From positions 2,541 to 66,540 of the forward strand of contig DATHRD010000063.1 in the NCBI GenBank assembly GCA_035482045.1: 64,000 nt of DNA, in the 5' to 3' direction. The DNA comes from Thermoanaerobaculia bacterium. GTDB taxonomy: Bacteria > Acidobacteriota > Thermoanaerobaculia > Gp7-AA8. A program made the translations under genes and the position numbers. Each line of letters begins with the position of its first letter. Positions within the stretch are counted from its first letter, which is position 1. Shown here piece after piece: positions 3,387 through 63,027 of this stretch. The notes below the pieces were generated by a model that had not been told where the DNA came from, did no database searches, and worked only from the letters and a program-made list of their open reading frames with translations.

Positions 3387-4766
3387 ATGGCCCTCTTTAC
3401 CCTTCCCCTCTTCCTGCTCGCACTCTATCCGCCGATCGCGTTCGACGAGACTCTCTACCATCTGCCATTCGTCGCGGCGATCGCGCGTTCCGGCTCGATC
3501 GGATTCCTGACGGACATGCGCTTGCCGGTGTTCCCGCGGATCCACGAGTTGCTTTGCGTGCCGGCTTTTCTGCTGGCGGGCGACACGGCAACGCACCTCG
3601 TCGCGCTGGCCGAGGTGCTGATCCTGGCAGGGCTGATGATCGAATGGCCGTCGCAGCGGCTGGCCGGCTTTCTCGCGGCCGCGCTCTTCCTCGGCAATCC
3701 GATCGTCGTGCAGATGGCCACGATCACCTATGCCGAGGCGGCTTTGGCCCTCTTCGTCGCCGCAGGCGTCTATTGTTTGAACCGCAACGCCGCCGCGGCC
3801 GGGTTTCTCCTCGGTACGGCGTGCAGCGTGAAGTACCTCGGCTGGTACTTCGCCGTGGCCGCGCTCCTGTACCTGTTGCTTTTCGGCACGAACCGCCGGC
3901 GCATGATTCCCCTATTCGCCGGCACATTTGCGGTCGCTGTGGTTCCGATGTACGCCCGTATCCTCGCGCTCACGGGCAATCCGGTTTTTCCCTTTATGCC
4001 GAGGGTGTTCGGAACGAGCGCGTGGACGATGTCGCTGCCGGCGGCGATCGCGCCGTCCGTGCGCATCGTGAACGCCCTGCGCCTCTTCTGGGACATCACC
4101 TTCGCCCGCGGGCGCGTCAACTTCCAGCCGCCGTACTCGCCGCTGTTCGCCGTGGCGATGTTGATCACGGTGATTGCGGCGACGCGCGATCGCCGCGCTG
4201 CATTCCTTTCGGCAATCTGCGCGGGGTACATCGCCATCTTCACCTTCCTGCCCCAGGACTCCCGTTATCTGCTACCGCTGCTTCCGCTGGTCAGCATCAC
4301 CGCCGCGACCAGCGTCGTGCCGATGATGCGGAGGAAGATGGTCATCGCGCTGTCTCTGCTATCGATCGCACCGGGCGTGGCCTATGCCGGATACCGCATG
4401 GCGCGCCAGGGTCCTCCGCCGGTCGCCGCAACGCAACGGCAGCAGTATCTGGAGGCGCACGTTCCGGAGTACCGCGCGCTCGAGCACCGCGGACCGGGAC
4501 GGATCTACGAGTGCGGCGCGGAGCAGTTGAAGTACTTCGGAGGCGAGGAGTTGCTCGGCGACGTCACGGGCCCGTTCGCGAATCAGACGATCCTCGGCGG
4601 GAGCGCCGACGCCGAGGCGTTGTGGCGATCGTTGGAACGGCTTCGGATCCGCTATCTGCTCGTGTCGGCCCACTGTCCGGTTCAGTGGCAGCGTCTCCCC
4701 GCGGAGCCGCGATTCGAGCTCGTTTACGCGGATGCGGGGGCCAAGCTCTGGCGGTTGCGGGAGTGA
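3387..4766 (+). CDS. GT-C family membrane glycosyltransferase (ArnT / PMT / GT39-83-like), polytopic
   Basis: start MALFTLPLFLLALYPPIAFDETLY gives TM1 followed by a DE motif, as in ArnT/PMT enzymes; many predicted TM helices. The upstream part of ORF 2391..4766 runs through REP hairpins and was not taken as coding. Confidence 0.65.
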   Translation: MALFTLPLFLLALYPPIAFDETLYHLPFVAAIARSGSIGFLTDMRLPVFPRIHELLCVPAFLLAGDTATHLVALAEVLILAGLMIEWPSQRLAGFLAAALFLGNPIVVQMATITYAEAALALFVAAGVYCLNRNAAAAGFLLGTACSVKYLGWYFAVAALLYLLLFGTNRRRMIPLFAGTFAVAVVPMYARILALTGNPVFPFMPRVFGTSAWTMSLPAAIAPSVRIVNALRLFWDITFARGRVNFQPPYSPLFAVAMLITVIAATRDRRAAFLSAICAGYIAIFTFLPQDSRYLLPLLPLVSITAATSVVPMMRRKMVIALSLLSIAPGVAYAGYRMARQGPPPVAATQRQQYLEAHVPEYRALEHRGPGRIYECGAEQLKYFGGEELLGDVTGPFANQTILGGSADAEALWRSLERLRIRYLLVSAHCPVQWQRLPAEPRFELVYADAGAKLWRLRE

Positions 4767-8634: not shown

Positions 8635-8724
8635 GGCGTTGTCGGTTATCGGTTGTCGGGACCGCTACACGTGGTTCCCCGTCGCCCGTCTTTGACAACG
8701 AGACAACCGACAACCGACAACGCG
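8635..8724. repeat. heptad-repeat palindromic element (GCGTTGTCGGTTRTCGGTTGTCGGG ... GACAACCGACAACCGACAACGCGC)
   Basis: TTGTCGG heptads in inverted orientation around an about 40 bp core; copies at 9953, 62875 and expanded at 54957. Confidence 0.65.
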
Positions 8725-9902: not shown

Positions 9903-9952
9903 CGTTCAAAGCTCCTGGTTGGAATGGGGGTAATCGTAACATGCGCCTGCGG

Positions 9953-10051
9953 CGCGTTGTCGGTTGTCGGTTGTCTGCGCGCTGCGGCGCGCGTGGACGA
10001 GCGCTCAAGAACACGCCAGAGCCAACTCAACCGACAACCGACAACGCGCGC
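9953..10051. repeat. heptad-repeat palindromic element, second copy, on the other side of metK
   Basis: GCGCGTTGTCGGTTGTCGGTTGTC ... CAACCGACAACCGACAACGCGCGC; core resembles the copy at 62875. Confidence 0.65.
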
Positions 10052-10063
10052 GGAGCGCGCGCC

Positions 10064-10579
10064 TCAGAATCCTTCCAGCAAATTCGTCACCAGCGACTCG
10101 GCGAAGCGGAGTGCGATCTCGTTGATGGCGCGCGTCTCCTGGGTCAGGGCGTCGGTCGACGTGGCGTTGACCTGATAGTTCTCGGCGAAGCGGTACTGAT
10201 CGTTCTTCCAGAGCACCTTGTCGTCGGCGCGATGGTCGACCAGCTCGATCTTGGCCGTGATCGATACCTGGTATTGCGTGGCCAGACCCTGGGCGTTGAA
10301 GGAGACGGGATAGATGCCGAAGGAGTCGATCTCCCCGTGGAGGATGACGTCCGCCTCCGCCGGGGCGTTGACCAGTTTGAGGCGGCCGCGCGAGACGAAC
10401 TCCTCCGCCACCGACTCCGTCACCCGCTGTTCGAGCTCGACGCGTGTCGTCTTGTTGACAAATGCCGGCACCTGAACTGTGTGGACCGTCGGTGCGAGCA
10501 GGTTGTTGGCTTTGCCGACCAACGTATAGCCGCAGGACGCGAGCAGCATCGGCACGAACAGGAGGACGAGACGTTTCAT
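10064..10579 (-). CDS. lptE: LPS-assembly lipoprotein LptE (RlpB-like)
   Basis: lipoprotein signal MKRLVLLFVPMLLASCGY; about 170 aa; lies immediately downstream of leuS as in the conserved leuS-lptE arrangement. Confidence 0.7.
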   Translation of the reverse strand: MKRLVLLFVPMLLASCGYTLVGKANNLLAPTVHTVQVPAFVNKTTRVELEQRVTESVAEEFVSRGRLKLVNAPAEADVILHGEIDSFGIYPVSFNAQGLATQYQVSITAKIELVDHRADDKVLWKNDQYRFAENYQVNATSTDALTQETRAINEIALRFAESLVTNLLEGF

Positions 10580-10596
10580 AGGACGAAAGGTAACAC

Positions 10597-10698
10597 GTAG
10601 CGCCGGCGGCTCGGCGGCTGGACCGCCAGCGGCTCGCTGGCGGCCTGTTTATCGCCGCCGAGCCGGCGGCGGTCCAGCCGGCGGGCCGCCGGCGCTAC
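10597..10698. repeat. REP-A palindromic element between leuS stop and lptE start
   Basis: GTAGCGCCGGCGGCTCGGCGGCTGGACCGCC...GGCGGTCCAGCCGGCGGGCCGCCGGCGCTAC. Confidence 0.65.
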
Positions 10699-13652: not shown

Positions 13653-13715
13653 GAACACTGTGCCGGCGATTTCAATCAGATTGTGAGAAATCCAGGTTTG
13701 GGTAGGCAATCGTCA

Positions 13716-14085
13716 GTCTCGGGGTATGGAACGACAGGTCTCGGGGTCTGGTGCGCCAAGTCCCGGGATCCGGAACGTCAGGTCTCGGGGTGCGGAACGT
13801 CAGGTCTCCGCGTGCGTAACGTCAGGTCCCGGGGTCCGGAACGTCTAGTCTCGGGGGTGGGGACGTCAGGTCCCGGGGTCCGGAACGTCTGGTTTCGGAG
13901 GTGGGGACGTCTAGTCTCAGGGGTGGGGACGTCAGGTCCCGGGGTCCGGAACGTCTGGTCTCGGGGGTGGGGACGTCAGGTCCCGGGGTCCGGAACGTCA
14001 GATCTCGGGGGTTGGGACGTCAGGTCTCGGGGTCCGGAACGTCAGGTTTCGGGGGTCGGGACCGGACGGGCGCACCCCCGGACTG
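13716..14085. repeat. tandem array of about 17 copies of a 22 bp unit (consensus GTCYCGGGGTSCGGAACGTCAG), with a 44 bp higher-order alternation
   Basis: direct reading; units are contiguous with no spacers, so not CRISPR. Confidence 0.9.
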
Positions 14086-14215
14086 GACGATTCACCGCCC
14101 GTACTGAACCGTTCACAGTGCGGACTGGACAATCAGTGCGAGGAACCGGGCGATTCACCGTGCGGACCGGACGATCCACCGTGCGGACCGGACGCCGCGC
14201 ACAGGGCCCGTCACG
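14086..14215. repeat. second short tandem array, about 6 copies of an about 21 bp unit (CGGACYGGACGATYCACCGTG)
   Basis: direct reading; abuts the first array and the dtd stop. Confidence 0.7.
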
Positions 14216-18602: not shown

Positions 18603-18627
18603 AGGTTTGTGATCACTCAGTCAATCA

Positions 18628-18742
18628 GTGATTGGTAGATTAGTAGATTAGTCGATTAGTGGATTAGAACCGATCAGAACCAGGCATCCGGACCACTCCA
18701 CGAATCCACTGATCCACTAATCTACTAATCTACTAATCTTCC
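18628..18742. repeat. AT-rich imperfect palindrome built from TAGATTAG octamer repeats, between two same-strand genes
   Basis: GATTAGTAGATTAGTCGATTAGTGGATTAG ... CCACTAATCTACTAATCTACTAATC. Confidence 0.55.
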
Positions 18743-32394: not shown

Positions 32395-32705
32395 ACTCGC
32401 GGAGTTCGTGATTAGACTTCGCGAGTCCATGAATTGACTCTGGGAGGCAATTAATTGACTCCGGGAGGCCATGAATTGACTCCGGGAGGCAATTAATTTG
32501 ACTCTGCGAGGCCATGAATTGACTCCGGGAGGCAATTAATTTGACTCTGGGGGGCAATTAATTGACTCCGGGAGGCAATTGATTTGACTCTGGGAGGCCA
32601 TGAATTGACTCGGGAAGGCCATGAATTGACTCTGGGAGGCCATGAATTGACTCCGGGAGGCCATGAATTGACTCCGGGAGGCAATTAATTGACTCCGGGA
32701 GTCCG
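32395..32705. repeat. tandem array of about 14 copies of a 21-22 bp unit (CATGAATTGACTCCGGGAGGC alternating with AATTAATTGACTCCGGGAGGC)
   Basis: direct reading; contiguous units with no spacers. Confidence 0.9.
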
Positions 32706-32789
32706 TGAATGGACGCGTTGGCTCACGAACGAGACCCTCGCCAACGACAGAACGCTCCGTCGATCCGACGTCTTGCCTCTGAATACGCC

Positions 32790-50929: not shown

Positions 50930-51160
50930 CGCGTCCATCTGCGGATGAATCAGATCTCGGCAGATTCGGGCTGGGAGCGAACGAACATTGACGCGACGCG
51001 TTCGTACCGAGGGAACGAATCCGCAGATGACGCAGATGAACGCAGATAAAAGCGTCCATCGGTTCTCCATCCGGCGGCGATACTCAAGACCGACGATCCG
51101 CGGATGAAAACGTCCTCCATCTGCGTACATCTGCGTCATCTGCGGATAAGCCTTTTCAAT
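50930..51160. promoter_or_regulatory. dyad of triplicated 9-mers (GCAGATGAC/GCAGATGAA x3 ... CATCTGCGT x3) upstream of iscS
   Basis: CGCAGATGACGCAGATGAACGCAGATA at about 51028; CCATCTGCGTACATCTGCGTCATCTGCGG at about 51117. Confidence 0.4.
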
Positions 51161-52799: not shown

Positions 52800-53289
52800 T
52801 GCCGCCCGGGTCAGTCTAAAGTCTACAAAACGCACTTCATCCGTCGCCAGTTCCACGGAGAAAGCGGTCCATCCGGATGCCTGCCGCGCTTCGCCGGCGA
52901 TACTCGTGTCTTCGAGCGATATTTCTCGGAATCCTCCGCAACTGATCGTGTCCGTTTTCCAGAGGCGGCCGCTCTTTCCGAACAGTTGCACGCACATGCC
53001 GTTGTGTTCGACGAGGAACAGCGTCCTGGGCGCATCCATCGTCACTGCGGCGACGTCCGTGCCGATCCGCTCCACGAGGGTTCGCGTCACGAGGATCTAC
53101 TTGTTGGATACTGGCATGATGCCGGAAACGGCGAAGCGGACGCCGAGTCGGATCCTGTCTCGCACACGGGGGTAGTCGCCGATCTCCGCATGCCCGCCGC
53201 TGTCGATCGGCCCGTCGTCGATGCTGATCGTCGCGTACAAGTCGCCGATGAGGGACGGACGGAGACGCGATGGCTTCGAACAACGGATC

Positions 53290-53580
53290 GACTGTCCCTG
53301 ACTCAGCAATTTCTGGTCATCAGTTGCTCATTTAGCGGATCAGATCACCAATTTTGGAATCTCAATTGTCAAGTTTTCGACTTCGATCATGACGTTTGCA
53401 ACTTCGATCATTACGTTTGCGATATTAATCACGAATTTTATGACTGATACCATTACATCAAACGGCTAAATCACCAATTTGACGGATTGTATCGCGAACT
53501 TCGTAACTTCTATCATGAACTTTGCGATTCTATTCATGAGCTTCGCGCCTAACGTCACCAGTTTGATGAGTTAGATCGTT
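53290..53580. repeat. AT-rich region of degenerate direct repeats (ATCACCAATTTGR x3; ACTTCGATCATKACGTTTGC-like about 20-mers x4)
   Basis: direct reading; GC far below the window average. Confidence 0.5.
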
Positions 53581-53710
53581 GAAACATCTGCGGAGACGCC
53601 ATCGTCTCTATCAGAAAAGCGATCACTCGTCACAAGGACACCGCACTTTCCGCCAGCTTCGCCATCAATGAAGTCCGATTCGCCTTCCATGCTGCCGGAT
53701 TCGCCATCGT

Positions 53711-55513
53711 TCAGCTCCTCTTGTGCCGCCGTCTCCGCTTCGTCGCCTCCACCGGCGCCTCGGCGTCGGCGGCGCGGCGCACCCTCTGCGCGAACTGCTG
53801 CCACTGGCGAAAGGCGTCCACGTGTTTTCCTGACGAGAGCGCGTAGAGCTCGAGCAGCGCCAACGCGTCGCTGAACGGCTCGCGGTAGACGAACTTGAAC
53901 TGCGCCCGACGATCGGTCGGCGGCTCCAGCAGGCGCCAGAGCGTGTCGAGGGCCGTCTCGATCTGATGCCGCGTCCCCGCCGCCAGCGCCATGCGCGTAC
54001 ACATCGGCTGAATCAGCTCGCGGATGAAGAGGATCACTTCGCCGATCTTCATGCGCGACGCGCGCCGCGCCTCCTCCCGCTCCAACTCCTGGAGAATCCA
54101 CGGAAGGAACAGCACCGAGAGCAGCACCGGATCGGAGATCTTCCGCCCGGCCTGCACGGTGCGGTCGAGCACCTCCAGCATCTTCCAGAAGTACTGCGAC
54201 TGATCCCCGACGATGGCCTTGTAGACCTCGGGGACGAGTGGATCGAGCAGGCCGCTGTCGACCATCAGGCGGATGGCCCCGCGCGACCAGCCGCGCCGCA
54301 GCAGTTCGAGGATCTCCTCGGAAACGCGCGGGGCGGAGGCCTTCAGGATCTCGGTCTTGTGACGGATGATGGCGTCATAGGTGGCCGGCTCGATCTCGAA
54401 GCCGAGGCGTGAGGCAAACTCGATGGCCCGCATCATCCGCACCGGATCCTCGCGGAAACGGACGTCGGGATCGCCGATCACCCGCACCCGTTTCGCCTCC
54501 AGGTCTTCCAGCCCGCCGACGTAGTCGATCACCGAGAAGTCGGCGATGTTGTAGAAGAGCGCGTTGATGGTGAAGTCGCGCCGCCGCGCGTCCTGCAGGG
54601 GCGACCCGAAGGTGTTGTCGTCGGTGATCAGCAGCTCCTCGGCATCGTCGGCCCGCTCGGGCTCGCGCCGGAAGGTGGCCACCTCGACCAGCATGTCCTG
54701 AAAGATGATGTGTACGAGGCGGAAGCGCCGGCCGATGATGCGGCTGTTGCGGAAGAGGCGCCGGATCTCGGCCGGATGCGCGTCCGTGGCCAGGTCGAAA
54801 TCCTTCGGCGTCCCGCTCATCAGCAGATCGCGTACGCTGCCGCCGCAGAGATAGGCGCGGTAGCCGCTGCGGTGCAACCGGTAGAGGACTTTGAGGACGT
54901 TCTCCGGGATCCGCCGCCGCGAGATGGGGTGGTCGCTGCGGTCGATGACGACGCCGGGATCGTCGGGGATAGGTTCGACGGGGATTGGTTCGACGGGGGT
55001 CGGGAGTCGGGGGTCGGGGGTCGGAGAGAGGGTCAGATCAGGCTCATCGTTGTCGGCTGTCAGTTTTCGGTTCGCGGGGGTCGGGGGTCGGGGGTCGGGA
55101 GTCGGAGGTAGGTCACTGCTGGTTGTCGGTTGTCGGTTGACGGTTATCGCGGGGGCCGGGGGTCGGGGGTCGGGCGTCGGAGAGAGAGCGTTGTCGGTTG
55201 TGGGTTGTGGGCTGTCGGTTGTCGCGGGGGTCGGGAGTCGGGGGTCAAGGGTCGGAGAGAGATTGTTGTCAGTTGTCGGTTGAGGGTCGTCGGTGATCAG
55301 GTGAGATGGCAGGTCCGGCTCATGAGAACTGACGAGCTCCGACCGCCGACCCCCGACTCCCGACTCCCGTTCAGGGTCTGGTTCACCGGAGGCGTCTAAC
55401 TCCGACCCCCGACCCCCGACCCCCGACTCCCGTTCAGGATCAGGTCCATCGGAGGCGACTAACTCCGACCCCCGACCCCCGACTCCCGACCCCCGATTCT
55501 CGATCCCGCTCAT
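53711..55513 (-). CDS. pcnB: poly(A) polymerase I / tRNA nucleotidyltransferase family protein with an about 200 aa low-complexity N-terminal extension
   Basis: core NVLKVLYRLHRSGYRAYLCGGSVRDLL...PKDFDLATDA...RRDFTINALFY matches PcnB. No canonical start codon lies between the repeat region and the core. The ATG at 55513 overlaps the lepB stop (ATGA). Confidence 0.75.
   Translation of the reverse strand: MSGIENRGSGVGGRGSELVASDGPDPERESGVGGRGSELDASGEPDPERESGVGGRRSELVSSHEPDLPSHLITDDPQPTTDNNLSPTLDPRLPTPATTDSPQPTTDNALSPTPDPRPPAPAITVNRQPTTSSDLPPTPDPRPPTPANRKLTADNDEPDLTLSPTPDPRLPTPVEPIPVEPIPDDPGVVIDRSDHPISRRRIPENVLKVLYRLHRSGYRAYLCGGSVRDLLMSGTPKDFDLATDAHPAEIRRLFRNSRIIGRRFRLVHIIFQDMLVEVATFRREPERADDAEELLITDDNTFGSPLQDARRRDFTINALFYNIADFSVIDYVGGLEDLEAKRVRVIGDPDVRFREDPVRMMRAIEFASRLGFEIEPATYDAIIRHKTEILKASAPRVSEEILELLRRGWSRGAIRLMVDSGLLDPLVPEVYKAIVGDQSQYFWKMLEVLDRTVQAGRKISDPVLLSVLFLPWILQELEREEARRASRMKIGEVILFIRELIQPMCTRMALAAGTRHQIETALDTLWRLLEPPTDRRAQFKFVYREPFSDALALLELYALSSGKHVDAFRQWQQFAQRVRRAADAEAPVEATKRRRRHKRS
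54957..55505. repeat. about 550 bp expansion of heptad repeats: (GGGGTCG)n and (GTTGTCG)n blocks followed by their inverted complements (CGACCCC)n
   Basis: direct reading; same TTGTCGG heptads as the elements at 8635, 9953 and 62875. Confidence 0.85.
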
Positions 55514-56268
55514 GGACTTTCGCCGGCCTCGCCCTCGGGCGTCAAACCCGGCGTGAAGTGGTATTTGCTGTCGACGATGAAGAACATCCGTTCCCATCGC
55601 GTCTTCGTGAAGAAGTGGACGGCCACTCCTAGCAATTCCTTGACCCTGGCCGAGCTCGGGGCGTCCTGCGGCGGCGGCGTTCCCTCGAAGGACCAATAGA
55701 CCATGAAGGCGCGCCCCTTGATCATGGAGCGGGGCACGGTCCCCCAGTATCGGGAGTCGCTGGAGCGGTCGCGGTTGTCACCCATGGCGAAGTACTGGCC
55801 ATCGGGGACGAGGTACGGCCCGAACTGGTCCCGCGATCGGTACGGTTCCGGGAGCTGGGGCCGCGGAGGATAGATCGTCGGATCGACATGGATCACGTAT
55901 GGCTCCGACTGGGGCTTGCCGTTGATGGAAACGACCTTGTCGTGGACTTCCACCGTGTCCCCGGGCAGGCCGATCACGCGCTTCACGAAGTCGGTGTCCG
56001 GCTGCAGGGGATACCGGAAGACGATGATGTCGCCGCGCCGGATCGCGCGCAGCGGCAGCAGCCCGCCGAGCGACGTGCCCGGTCCATAGATGAATTTGTT
56101 GACGATGATGTGATCGCCGACCTTCAGGTTGTCTTCCATCGATCCCGTCGGGATCTTGAACGCCTGAAAGGCGAAGATACGGGCAAAGTTGACGAAGATG
56201 ACGGCGATCAGGAGCGCTTCGTAGTACTCGCGGGTCGTTGATTTCTTTACGGTTTCATCGACGGCCAT
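55510..56268 (-). CDS. lepB: signal peptidase I
   Basis: PTGSMEDNL (Ser nucleophile box), GDIIVFRYP, VKRVIGLPGD (Lys box), YFAMGDNRDRSSDSRYWG. Confidence 0.92.
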   Translation of the reverse strand: MAVDETVKKSTTREYYEALLIAVIFVNFARIFAFQAFKIPTGSMEDNLKVGDHIIVNKFIYGPGTSLGGLLPLRAIRRGDIIVFRYPLQPDTDFVKRVIGLPGDTVEVHDKVVSINGKPQSEPYVIHVDPTIYPPRPQLPEPYRSRDQFGPYLVPDGQYFAMGDNRDRSSDSRYWGTVPRSMIKGRAFMVYWSFEGTPPPQDAPSSARVKELLGVAVHFFTKTRWERMFFIVDSKYHFTPGLTPEGEAGESP

Positions 56269-57334
56269 TCGGCGGGGGTATTCCCTTCAGATCGTCCGCG
56301 ATCAGTGCGGCGGCAAATGATTGTACGACAGCGGGTGGGGCGGACAGCGTGTTTCCGTTGCGGGCATAGCGGTGCGGAGGGAGATTCGGGTCCGCTGTGA
56401 TGAAGGTTACAGGGTTGCTGGGGTGCTGGGGTGCTGGGGTGCTGGAGTGCCGGGGTTCCGGGTTGACGACGTAGGTTCGGGTGTTGTCGATCCAGGCCAC
56501 CTTGGCGATGTCGCGCCAGAATGAGTCGCTGACCGCGGGCGCGATGGCGATGGCCACCCGTGCGTTGCGCATGAGCGCGGCCCGCGCGTCGCTCCAGGCG
56601 AATGGGCTGCGGTCGAGCCAGACCACCAGGGGCAGCCGCTCGTTGTAGTGCATGGCATTCGGCCTCATGACCAGCACGCCGCCGATCGGCTCGATGGAGA
56701 CGTCGAGGCGCGCCGCGGGGGCGACCTCCTCCTGCCGCTTCTCTCCCTCGTACGTCATCGACAGCACGCTCTGTGACGCATCCGGAGACTGGACGACCAC
56801 GGCAAACCGGACCGCCTGCGGTTCCCAGGAGAGCGCGTCGATCTGCGTCCGCGGAAAGTCGACCGATAGCTGCGCGGACGTTGGGATGTGAACGGTGCGC
56901 ACGATGCTACCTGTCGGGGTGTGCAGGATATAGCTCACCTTGTGACCCCGAGGAGCCCACTGCACGTTCACCTCGTCCGCGGGGTCCTCGGGGATCCAGT
57001 GGATGTCGCTGCCGTCGATCGATACGAGGCCGACATCGAAGTTGTCCTTCCGTTTGGCCGAGAAGACGATCTCCTTGCGCTCGGGCGAGACGTCGTACGA
57101 GTCGATCGCCAGGAACTCCGGCGTCAGCGCTTTGTCGCCGTTGACGATACGGTTTCCGGCGACGCGAACCGAGGGGAGTTGTGCTCTGGCCACACATTTG
57201 AACGACGCGCAATAGTCGCCGACAAGCGCCGCGGCCGGCACCGATTCCCATCCCTTTGGCAACGGGAGCGACGCGCTGGCGCACCCTCCCAGGAGCAGCA
57301 GCCCCAGCCATGACATCCGTCGCATGCGCTGCAT
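56255..57334 (-). CDS. hypothetical lipoprotein (possible beta-propeller)
   Basis: MSWLGLLLLGGCASA lipobox; no enzymatic motif recognised. Confidence 0.5.
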   Translation of the reverse strand: MQRMRRMSWLGLLLLGGCASASLPLPKGWESVPAAALVGDYCASFKCVARAQLPSVRVAGNRIVNGDKALTPEFLAIDSYDVSPERKEIVFSAKRKDNFDVGLVSIDGSDIHWIPEDPADEVNVQWAPRGHKVSYILHTPTGSIVRTVHIPTSAQLSVDFPRTQIDALSWEPQAVRFAVVVQSPDASQSVLSMTYEGEKRQEEVAPAARLDVSIEPIGGVLVMRPNAMHYNERLPLVVWLDRSPFAWSDARAALMRNARVAIAIAPAVSDSFWRDIAKVAWIDNTRTYVVNPEPRHSSTPAPQHPSNPVTFITADPNLPPHRYARNGNTLSAPPAVVQSFAAALIADDLKGIPPPNGRR

Positions 57335-61681: not shown

Positions 61682-62863
61682 ATGATGCGAACAACGCTCG
61701 CGTTCCTTCTACTCGGCGTCGCCACGGCCGCGGGCGCCCAATCATCGCTGCAGTTTCACGGGTACCTCGCCGCGCGCGAGATCTACGTCAACGCCCAGCC
61801 CGGGTGGCTTCAGGACGGCGTGGGGCGCTTCGATGTCGGCGCGGCCAATCCCGACGACCATCACCTCGTCAACGTCGACAGCGCGCAACTGGGCCTCGAC
61901 TGGACGCCATCCTCCTGGTTCCTGTTCCACGGAGACGGCGTGGCGCGGCATGAGCAGTCCGGCTCCGGCGGCAAACGCGCCGGCATCGTGCAGGCCTACC
62001 TCGAAATCCACAACCCGCACTGGCGCCTGCGCGCCGGCGAGTTCTGGCTGCCGACGTCCCGGGAGAACACGGATCCTCTCTGGACGTCGAAGTACACGAT
62101 CACCTACTCCGCGCTGAACTCGTGGATCGCCCAGGAAGTGCGGCCGATCGGCGCGGACCTGCAGTGGTCGCCGAGCTTCTACGTGACGGTCGGCGGGACA
62201 GCCTTTCGAGGGAATGACACGATGGGCACCGCGCTGGCCGCCCGCGGCTGGACGCTCGGTAACTATCTGACCACGTATGACGAGCGCATCCCGCTGCCGG
62301 ATTACGACTCGGTGCGGCCGATCGGCGCGGATCTCGACAACAAGAACGGCTATTCCGAGCGCGTTCGCGTGTCCCTTCCCGAGCGTGCCATGCTCCAGGT
62401 TGCACACATCGACAACCGCGCACCGATTTCTCCGGTCGATCTGAAGGGTCAGACGCCGTGGCAGACGCACTTCAACGTCGTCAGCGGAGAGGCCGGTACG
62501 ACGGGCGACACCACGGTCGCGGCGGAATGGGCGTACGGCTCGACCGCGGTGGGATTCCCGGGTGGCCGCTTCACCATGGATTTCGATACCGAGTACCTGC
62601 TGGCCTCTCACAAGTTCGGTACGGAGCGTGTCAGCGCACGCGTCGAGCGATTCTCGACGCGCGATGCGTTGCGTCCGCCCACCGACGGCAGCCGTGAGAA
62701 CGGCCGCGCCTGGACCGTGGCCTGGATGCACGATGCCAGCGCCAACGCACGCACCGGCATCGAATACGTGAGGGTCAGCGGCAACCGCCCCGGCCTCGCG
62801 CCAGACTTCGATCCACGCACCGGCGGTTCGACGGTAACGATCGAGTACCGGTACGGGTTCTGA
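61682..62863 (+). CDS. secreted, probable outer-membrane beta-barrel protein of unknown function
   Basis: signal peptide MMRTTLAFLLLGVATAAGAQ; alternating amphipathic pattern; ends with aromatic ...YRYGF; paralog starts at 63028. Confidence 0.5.
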   Translation: MMRTTLAFLLLGVATAAGAQSSLQFHGYLAAREIYVNAQPGWLQDGVGRFDVGAANPDDHHLVNVDSAQLGLDWTPSSWFLFHGDGVARHEQSGSGGKRAGIVQAYLEIHNPHWRLRAGEFWLPTSRENTDPLWTSKYTITYSALNSWIAQEVRPIGADLQWSPSFYVTVGGTAFRGNDTMGTALAARGWTLGNYLTTYDERIPLPDYDSVRPIGADLDNKNGYSERVRVSLPERAMLQVAHIDNRAPISPVDLKGQTPWQTHFNVVSGEAGTTGDTTVAAEWAYGSTAVGFPGGRFTMDFDTEYLLASHKFGTERVSARVERFSTRDALRPPTDGSRENGRAWTVAWMHDASANARTGIEYVRVSGNRPGLAPDFDPRTGGSTVTIEYRYGF

Positions 62864-62874
62864 GTCTGCGCCTT

Positions 62875-63002
62875 GCGCGTTGTCGGTTGTCGGTTGTCGG
62901 GCGCTGCGGAGCGCGTGGGAACGAGCGTTCAAGACGCGCGCCCACGTCCGACATTCAACGGGCACCAACAACCAACCGACAACCGACAACCGACAACGCC
63001 GC
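62875..63002. repeat. heptad-repeat palindromic element separating the two outer-membrane paralogs
   Basis: GCGCGTTGTCGGTTGTCGGTTGTCGGG ... CCGACAACCGACAACCGACAACGCC; core similar to the copy at 9953. Confidence 0.7.
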
Positions 63003-63027
63003 ACAGCGGCAGAACTACAATCCCCTC

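Follow-up and report, generated by a model that had tools for sequence, protein, structure and literature searches.

Heptad-repeat DNA probably read as a disordered N-terminal extension of PcnB in a Thermoanaerobaculia genome

Where does translation of pcnB begin, and is the repeat DNA in front of its conserved core read into protein? The question is raised by a stretch of a Thermoanaerobaculia genome (the window: 64,000 nucleotides, or 64 kb, of contig DATHRD010000063.1), where arrays of a G-rich heptad, followed by their inverted complements, separate the end of lepB from the PcnB core. On the evidence reported here, pcnB is probably translated from the ATG at 55513, and the repeat DNA is read as a 188-residue disordered head piece of the protein. 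Coordinates refer to the window; lepB, pcnB and an unnamed open reading frame (ORF) 5' of lepB all lie on the minus strand. The locus is composed as follows.

55510–56268, minus strand: lepB, signal peptidase I, 252 aa (Peptidase_S26, E 2.6e-53)
55510–55513, minus strand: stop-start overlap of lepB and pcnB, ATGA, read directly from the sequence, with the lepB TGA at 55510–55512
53711–55513, minus strand: full pcnB ORF, 600 codons plus stop, open throughout (from the ORF list)
54950–55513, minus strand: repeat-derived N-terminal extension, between the ATG and the core, 188 codons, 564 nt, rich in Pro, Asp, Thr, Ser and Gly
53711–54949, minus strand: conserved PcnB core, residues 189–600 (TIGR01942, residues 189–599)

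The core matches the pcnB model TIGR01942 with 331.7 bits (cut-off 305.65), over model positions 1–418 of 425 and residues 189–599. The nucleotidyltransferase head domain, PolyA_pol (PF01743), is found at residues 220–344 (E 3.4e-35) and the RNA-binding domain, PolyA_pol_RNAbd (PF12627), at residues 371–430 (E 1.1e-13). The cut-off of the E. coli-type equivalog NF008634 is missed (266 bits vs 702); the assignment to PcnB is at the subfamily level only, where the sequence does not settle poly(A) versus CCA-adding activity. Since the pcnB model begins at residue 189, the first 188 codons are extra: somewhat fewer than the about 200 residues given in an earlier note on this DNA. Gene calling on the source contig (ENA ERZ27253567, k141_1129837) likewise yields a protein of 600 aa, and in a second assembly, carrying an identical LepB, the ORF starting at the ATGA is open for at least 369 codons. 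The C-terminus of LepB is full-length, and conserved across the closest relatives.

Codons 2–212 of pcnB include no in-frame ATG, GTG or TTG, and the TTG that follows, at 54877 (codon 213), falls inside invariant core residues. The first usable start is accordingly, as the earlier note had it, the ATG at 55513, overlapping the lepB TGA as ATGA. The comparison of pcnB N-termini and of lepB–pcnB spacing, recommended in that note, was carried out on a scan with one genome per species. It covered 80 loci, every one from a metagenome-assembled genome of Thermoanaerobaculia or Acidobacteriota; the 13 closest relatives are those with 86–94% core identity. The lepB gene is found directly 5' of pcnB in 79 of the 80 loci, and is separated from it by 822 nt in the other (L080). 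In 74 of the 80 an in-frame ATG overlaps the end of lepB by 4–14 nt: 33 loci have an overlap of 4 nt (ATGA), 35 have one of 14 nt, and in the remaining 6 it measures 8 or 11 nt. The junction reads GTCCATGA or GCCCATGA, as in the window, in all 13 closest relatives, each featuring the ATGA.

The distance from ATG to core in these 13 relatives ranges from 87 to 354 nt, and every spacer is a multiple of 3. Among the 33 ATGA relatives, 22 distinct lepB-to-core gap lengths are found, from 38 to 350 nt, to which the window adds a 23rd, of 560 nt; the ATG-to-core spacers matching all 23 lengths are multiples of 3 without exception. Indels between alignable relatives measure 3, 12, 15, 21 and 57 nt. 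In the spacers of the window and its 13 closest relatives, the pcnB frame contains 0 stop codons, vs 32 and 41 for the remaining sense frames; for the extension of the window alone, the counts are 0 vs 7 and 10. The frame is thus kept across varied spacer lengths, which an untranslated leader would not need, so that the region does not behave as one. Translation from the lepB-overlapping ATG, as put forward earlier, agrees with the conserved overlap, with spacers in multiples of 3, and with the pcnB frame being the only stop-free one. This start, and a protein of 600 aa, are strongly supported and would appear settled by the comparison, which fixes the pcnB annotation. Predicted tryptic peptides specific to the extension are GSELVASDGPDPER and GSELDASGEPDPER, while the junction peptide ends in ...DDPGVVIDR.

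Several points weigh against this reading. Translation is deduced from the sequence. The extension is devoid of the high GC content at third codon positions (GC3) that marks the coding DNA of this 64% GC genome: GC at codon positions 1/2/3 is 0.72/0.60/0.68 in the extension vs 0.67/0.42/0.91 in the core. Composition, therefore, adds no independent support, and the missing signature fits a recent or neutral origin of the extension. Hairpins this stable (-290 kcal/mol), possibly with G-quadruplexes, may slow ribosomes, with low output as a result. In at least one relative the NCBI pipeline picked a later TTG: its protein P0011, of 443 aa, when compared with locus L007, implies an internal TTG start, instead of the expected 63-codon extension plus core from the ATGA. 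Given the conserved overlap, the longer pcnB models in relatives are probably correct, and the later-start gene calls wrong. Searched on its own against a protein database, the 187-residue extension produced one weak match among the candidates listed, a result uninformative on prevalence, as the query is of low complexity; the protein-level spread of the phenomenon rests on about ten hand-checked metagenome loci.

The extension is almost entirely made of repeats. The sequence GGGGTCGGGGGTCG, allowing at most one mismatch, is found 18 times within 54996–55493, where 0.08 matches are expected: matches are on the plus strand up to 55240, and on the minus strand from 55340 onward. Tandem Repeats Finder reports period-7 arrays, together with super-units of 63 nt (2.5 copies) and 75 nt (3.3 copies); arm pairs of 33–38 nt, in inverted orientation and 84–100% complementary, are reported by the repeat finder. 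Upstream of the core, the earlier note had described heptads of the GGGGTCG and GTTGTCG types, followed by their inverted complements: the repeats are there, with inverted partners for the GGGGTCG type only, not for GTTGTCG. The natural register of the heptad is GGGRGTC, and each arm is made of four units plus GGAG; within the window, strict GGGRGTC units are four in 4 of 6 arrays, and three in 2 of 6. On the sense strand, three 63-nt G-rich units are followed by a short unique stretch, about 3.3 75-nt units, an extra C-rich arm and a 15-nt repeat. The extension thus holds 3 G-rich and 4 C-rich arms, the latter reading (GACYCCC)4 in the sense strand. The elements are reported here in sense order, the dispersed (CAACCGA)n blocks being given together; labels starting with I and D indicate arm pairs and direct-repeat families.

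55312–55500, minus strand: three tandem 63-nt (21-codon) units, one G-rich arm each (family D3, 73–79% identity between units)
55463–55495, minus strand: G-rich arm 1, (GGGRGTC)4 + GGAG, pair I3, starting 19 nt past the A of the ATG
55400–55432, minus strand: G-rich arm 2, pairs I2 and I7, minimum-energy partner 55075–55111
55337–55369, minus strand: G-rich arm 3, pairs I6 and I13, minimum-energy partner 55225–55257
55049–55296, minus strand: about 3.3 tandem 75-nt (25-codon) units, each composed of (CAACCGA)n, CTCTCTCCGA and (CCCCGAC)n (family D1, 76–80% identity)
55225–55257, minus strand: C-rich arm, partner of G-rich arm 3 (repeat finder and RNA fold)
55150–55182, minus strand: C-rich arm, surplus copy, unpaired in the minimum-energy fold
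55075–55111, minus strand: C-rich arm, partner of G-rich arm 2, pairs I1 and I2, 92% complementary
54994–55026, minus strand: last C-rich arm, partner of G-rich arm 1, pair I3, ending 44 nt before the core
55121–55149, 55190–55224, 55265–55285 and 55049–55062, minus strand: four (CAACCGA)n blocks, sense reading QPTTDNR
54960–54998, minus strand: 15-nt repeat, 2.6 copies, encoding VEPIPVEPIP (family D4)

The outermost pair, formed by G-rich arm 1 and 54994–55026, is complementary at 33 of 33 positions. When folded as RNA, the extension forms three nested long stems, with an energy of -290.5 kcal/mol vs -227 +/- 7 for shuffled sequences (z = -8.7). A candidate quadruplex oligonucleotide from the repeat is CGGGGGUCGGGAGUCGGGGGUCGGGGGUCGGAG. 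The (CAACCGA)n heptad, present in the extension in one orientation only, is also the heptad found in the arms of intergenic elements of the window, described below. A scan for promoters and terminators found none inside the repeat region. An Rfam scan of 53200–56600 returned only a sub-threshold microRNA-hairpin match, judged to be spurious.

The peptide encoded by these repeats contains 21% Pro and no aromatic residues, is rich in Asp, Thr, Ser and Gly, and is net acidic. AlphaFold2 assigns no secondary structure to residues 1–188 (pLDDT 35–51): the extension is predicted to be disordered. Its reading may be anticipated from the heptads themselves. Because 7 and 3 share no factor, the same peptide is obtained in every frame: each heptad encodes, in all three frames, one cyclic 7-residue peptide (GSRESGV, GGRGSGV, DSRLPTP, DPRPPTP or QPTTDNR, for (GGGAGTC)n, (GGGGGTC)n, (GACTCCC)n, (GACCCCC)n and (CAACCGA)n, respectively), and stop codons are absent from all five arrays. 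The motifs so predicted are those found in the extension.

Selection on this peptide seems weak. Between relatives, dN/dS is 0.46–0.84 in the extension vs 0.03–0.05 in the core; for loci L002 and L007, extension DNA shows 79.6% identity, about that of synonymous sites in the core (pS 0.21). More distant relatives feature, at the extension site, an acidic tail of 9–30 residues (median 24–27), with no hairpin. The extension site is therefore a permissive N-terminal tail. As judged from these comparisons, the extension is nearly neutral and tolerated, and we infer that the peptide has no function of its own. To call the repeat "exapted", as had been done, is thus an overstatement: a peptide evolving in a nearly neutral way looks tolerated, not recruited.

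The hairpin is found also in relatives. One arm pair of the same design is present in 10 of the 13 closest ones, with arms of 31–37 nt, or 24 nt in L007. The 5' arm starts 14–25 nt past the A of the ATG both in these ten and in the window, and in most relatives the 3' arm ends 12–22 nt before the core. Four units (plus GGAG) per arm are found in the window and in all ten arm-bearing relatives, despite divergence, while loops are variable and mostly unalignable. In the other three (L003, L008 and L012) recognizable arms are lost and fold z-scores are near 0, yet the extension is still open. When arms are aligned, 84.8% of the cells pair, vs 43–53% with partner columns slid. In four relatives (L004, L006, L009 and L011) GGGRGTG replaces GGGRGTC in both arms, which turns C:G into G:C at each of the four heptads; 4 sequences show the change at three pairs, and 2 sequences at the fourth. 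This covariation may indicate selection for pairing or, equally, a single replacement or homogenization event in a tandem repeat. By eye, the arms of L002 and L007 differ at 4 of 33 positions (5' arm) and 8 of 33 (3' arm). No GGGRGTC or GGGRGTG arrays are present outside pcnB in the 9-kb flanks of the relatives.

Two relatives display further arrangements. The 354-nt extension of L011 contains two heptad types, in the order A (GGGRGTG), B (GGGRGTC) ... A' B'; since this order is not nested, both pairs cannot coexist in one simple hairpin. In L070 (about 3872–4000) the palindrome of the extension is flanked on both sides by GATGAG(A), ..ATGAGTGATGAGAAT[CGGGGG...CCCCCG]ATGAGAGC..; minus the element and one GATGAG(A) copy, the sequence would read MSDESGVVIDRS. 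The GATGAG(A) of this one locus may be a target-site duplication.

The history suggested by these data would be the following. The N-terminal tail of an ancestral pcnB would have been short and acidic. A hairpin element, in which a loop joins a (GGGRGTC)4 arm to a (GACYCCC)4 arm, would then have been gained between the first codons and the core, in the ancestor of the clade with 86–94% core identity; the hairpin is treated here as a structural property of this inserted repeat. In the lineage of the window, arms would then have multiplied through tandem duplication of the 63-nt and 75-nt units, both multiples of 3: the perfect arms and the super-units have the look of a recent expansion in this lineage, of which only multiples of 3 were retained. 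Ribosomes would start at the ATG at 55513, and read through 564 nt of palindromic repeat into an ordinary PcnB. The insert may have been tolerated as it lies in a region free of structural constraint and its heptads are stop-free on either strand; translation would only demand a total length compatible modulo 3, and a compatible loop sequence. The case would show non-coding repeat DNA turning into protein sequence harmlessly, provided that the total length fits.

A role for the RNA structure might add to translation of the extension. The hairpin, or a four-unit G-quadruplex, could be a selected translational throttle, with the peptide as a by-product: located 14–25 nt past the stop-start overlap, it would cut re-initiation or early elongation and keep PcnB scarce. 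In E. coli, PcnB is kept scarce by a non-AUG start codon (AUU). The similar placement of the 5' arm in the window and in ten of the 13 relatives, and of the 3' arm in most, is in favor of a throttle, and so are the pairing excess and the joint switch of both arms to GGGRGTG in four relatives. Structures just past the stop of the upstream gene lower coupling efficiency (reviewed in PMC12548453), and four is both the smallest G-tract count of a quadruplex and the number of units preferred by known heptamer repeats (PMC4692102). A strict requirement is, however, disfavored by the three relatives that lost the hairpin and kept an open extension, while distant relatives do without it, with a tail of 14–30 residues. 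Arms of relatives carry 2–6 mismatches, and those of L002 and L007 diverge within an extension that changes at nearly the synonymous rate of the core, so that no clear purifying selection acts on them; the heptad switch itself is possibly one homogenization or replacement event, not four independent compensations. That the hairpin lowers PcnB output is plausible, by analogy; that it was selected for this purpose is rather doubtful. If it does tune lepB–pcnB coupling, a new way to keep poly(A) polymerase scarce would be at hand.

The other explanations fare worse than this one. The earlier note had considered, as a fallback, that pcnB starts at a non-canonical codon near 54900–54950, the repeats forming a structured, untranslated leader. 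For such a start, sought at about 54900–54990, in-frame ATC codons are available at 54985, 54970 and 54946, and both the strong folding of the region and its lack of a coding-type GC3 bias would suit a leader. No Shine-Dalgarno-like motif, however, precedes any in-frame CTG, ATC or ATA codon of the extension; a leader would have no need for the multiple-of-3 length and single stop-free frame shared by 14 of 14 genomes; and, in short-spacer relatives, the lepB-overlapping ATG is the sole start. The fallback is accordingly very improbable.

Hardly more credible is a slippage switch, by which gain or loss of one 7-nt unit would turn pcnB off and on (phase variation). Seven is not a multiple of 3, and a link between simple repeats near N-termini and switching by frame shift has been reported (Lin and Kussell, cited in PMC4692102). 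All genomes examined, however, are in frame, four units per arm are fixed in the window and the ten arm-bearing relatives, imperfect units reduce slippage, and pcnB does housekeeping work in RNA turnover and encodes no surface antigen. Finally, it is most unlikely that the long array is an assembly artefact, easily produced as repeats may be in a short-read metagenome contig (k141), or that pcnB is a decaying pseudogene here: units are only 73–80% alike, the perfect arms (33 nt) are shorter than the k-mer, the same lepB is followed by an open ORF in the second assembly, all 600 codons are open, and the core is intact, with dN/dS of 0.03–0.05 in relatives.

The repeat itself may be compared with known ones. 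Rehm et al. (2015; PMC4692102) described G-rich heptamers of the GGGNATC / GGGGA(C/T)T type, namely GGGAATC in Xanthomonas and GGGGA(C/T)T in Nostoc, for which four units are favored, many arrays form convergent inverted pairs, about 90% are intergenic (7–11% inside ORFs), and G-quadruplexes form in vitro. The repeats described here share with them the 7-nt tandem unit, with a G3-5 tract followed by xTC, the four units per array, the convergent inverted pairs able to form stem-loops, and the dispersed location, mostly outside genes, with an intragenic minority (at least 9 of 80 sampled loci). They differ in the unit, GGG(A/G)GT(C/G): GGGAGTC is one base away from GGGAATC, as in a sister type, not the described motif. 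They differ also in the host, Thermoanaerobaculia of the Acidobacteriota, and in the quadruplex, formed there in vitro and putative here. The pcnB copy, moreover, is found on the coding strand, at the 5' end of an ORF; it has stayed in frame throughout a clade, and has multiplied to 3 G-rich and 4 C-rich arms. A literature search found no description of the GGGRGTC heptad in Acidobacteria.

Palindromic elements of Rickettsia, which are not known to be built from heptads, offer a likeness in behavior. As summarized in PMC10969869 from Ogata et al. (2000, 2002), they are about 150 bp long, form ten families, and insert in frame, as hairpin repeats, into unrelated and often essential genes, sparing the host protein. 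The elements described here work like them, but organism and repeat design differ, and no sequence relation is expected; here the arms are simple repeats, reading alike in every frame, and loops are not conserved between loci. MIRUs (PMC12548453) are similarly located at a start codon within an operon, downstream translation being kept by a -4 stop-start overlap, as for the pcnB repeat; a MIRU, however, brings its own small ORF, the end of which forms a new overlap with the host gene, while the pcnB repeat is fused to its host with no stop in between. Like MITEs and REP-type palindromes, the intergenic GTTGTCG elements of the window are short and dispersed; of what defines a MITE, inverted arms are present, while flanking direct repeats are inconsistent, a possible GATGAG(A) duplication being seen in L070 only. 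Altogether, the feature is a modestly novel variation on known heptamer quadruplex-type repeats and protein-coding palindromes.

Heptad arrays occur inside other genes as well. A metagenome scan for (GGGRGTC)4 detected at least 120 stretches, and 80 loci were retrieved; no lepB–pcnB junction is found among the 80 retrieved from the matches listed. Among these matches, 61 of 97 arrays lie outside coding-like segments, and several form plus/minus pairs, 60–250 nt apart. At least 9 of the 80 sampled loci, from soil metagenome contigs, contain in-frame arrays or arm pairs inside conserved genes.

L109 6500–6653 (minus strand), L153 2278–2402, L087, L088, L089, L091, L096, L098 and L099: in-frame loci, soil metagenome

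In MutS the array falls between domains I and II, encoding LGVGGRGSGVGEK...PTPDPRLPTP. The other hosts are a large glycoside hydrolase-like ORF, a MiaB-like radical SAM enzyme, a class II aldolase, a glycosyltransferase, a Wzy_C O-antigen ligase-like protein, the 5'-3' exonuclease region of DNA polymerase I, a short-chain fatty acid transporter and UPF0261; the arrays are usually located at domain boundaries. Inspected by eye, the insertions in MutS and in the glycoside hydrolase-like ORF (L109, L153) show no target-site duplication. The arrays in mutS and polA homologues suggest a wider phenomenon, akin to the protein-coding palindromes of Rickettsia, but outside that genus. A broader claim, so far tentative and rather unlikely, is that GGGRGTC palindromes are a general new source of disordered segments in soil Acidobacteria and other high-GC bacteria, with the lepB–pcnB hairpin or quadruplex perhaps co-opted to set the PcnB level. 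If this were true, stop-free heptads, blind to frame, could land or expand inside pcnB, mutS, polA and other genes, and be carried as linkers.

Within the window, no GGGRGTC arrays are found outside pcnB. The earlier note had placed the same heptad family in non-coding palindromes at 8635, 9953 and 62875: the palindromes are real and intergenic, but belong to the GTTGTCG type only, not to GGGRGTC.

8638–8721: (GTTGTCG)3/(CGACAAC)3 palindrome, intergenic, between a glycosyltransferase gene and metK
9956–10045: (GTTGTCG)3/(CGACAAC)3 palindrome, intergenic, between lptE and metK
62879–62997: (GTTGTCG)3/(CGACAAC)3 palindrome, intergenic, after ORF 61682–62863

The second and third have homologous loops (GCGCTGCGGxGCGCGTGG..ACGAGCGyTCAAGA), and GTTGTCG palindromes are therefore a dispersed element family. 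Two ORFs which would make these elements coding, 9941–10600 (plus strand) and 61742–63004 (minus strand), were ruled out by GC3 and Pfam evidence. Other hairpins of the window are the following.

2392–2484: hairpin with a 42-nt self-complementary unit
18619–18738: tandem-repeat-armed hairpin, arms GATTAGTA / TCCACTAA
47234–47345: tandem-repeat-armed hairpin, arms GAAGGAT / CCTTCAC
51022–51144: tandem-repeat-armed hairpin with 10-mer arms, CGCAGATGAA / CATCTGCGTA, upstream of a cysteine desulfurase gene

This genome seems generally prone to hairpins with tandem-repeat arms. The one at 51022–51144 was considered as a second translated element, and discarded, as it sits upstream of the real cysteine desulfurase start.

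The 5' neighbor of lepB also contains a repeat.

56255–57334, minus strand: unnamed ORF, 5' neighbor of lepB

Its 3' end overlaps the start of lepB by 14 nt (56255–56268); the unnamed ORF, lepB and pcnB thus form a chain of reading frames that overlap and are probably coupled in translation. Inside the ORF, an octamer array, (GGGGTGCT)5.6, is located in frame at 56412–56456 and encodes ..HSSTPAPQHPS.., a 7-residue insertion compared to the closest relatives; in L010, a different tandem-repeat insertion (GTRDEG..) is found in the same loop of the ORF upstream of lepB. Just past the pcnB stop, a region that looks AT-richer (53373–53708) contains several 21-nt repeats, of the type ..TTCATGAT.., ..TTGGTGAT... 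Longer tandem arrays are located at 13700–14194, where units of 22/44/66 nt are repeated about 16 times, followed by a 21-nt unit repeated 5.5 times, and at 32415–32714, where a 21-nt unit is repeated in tandem about 14 times.

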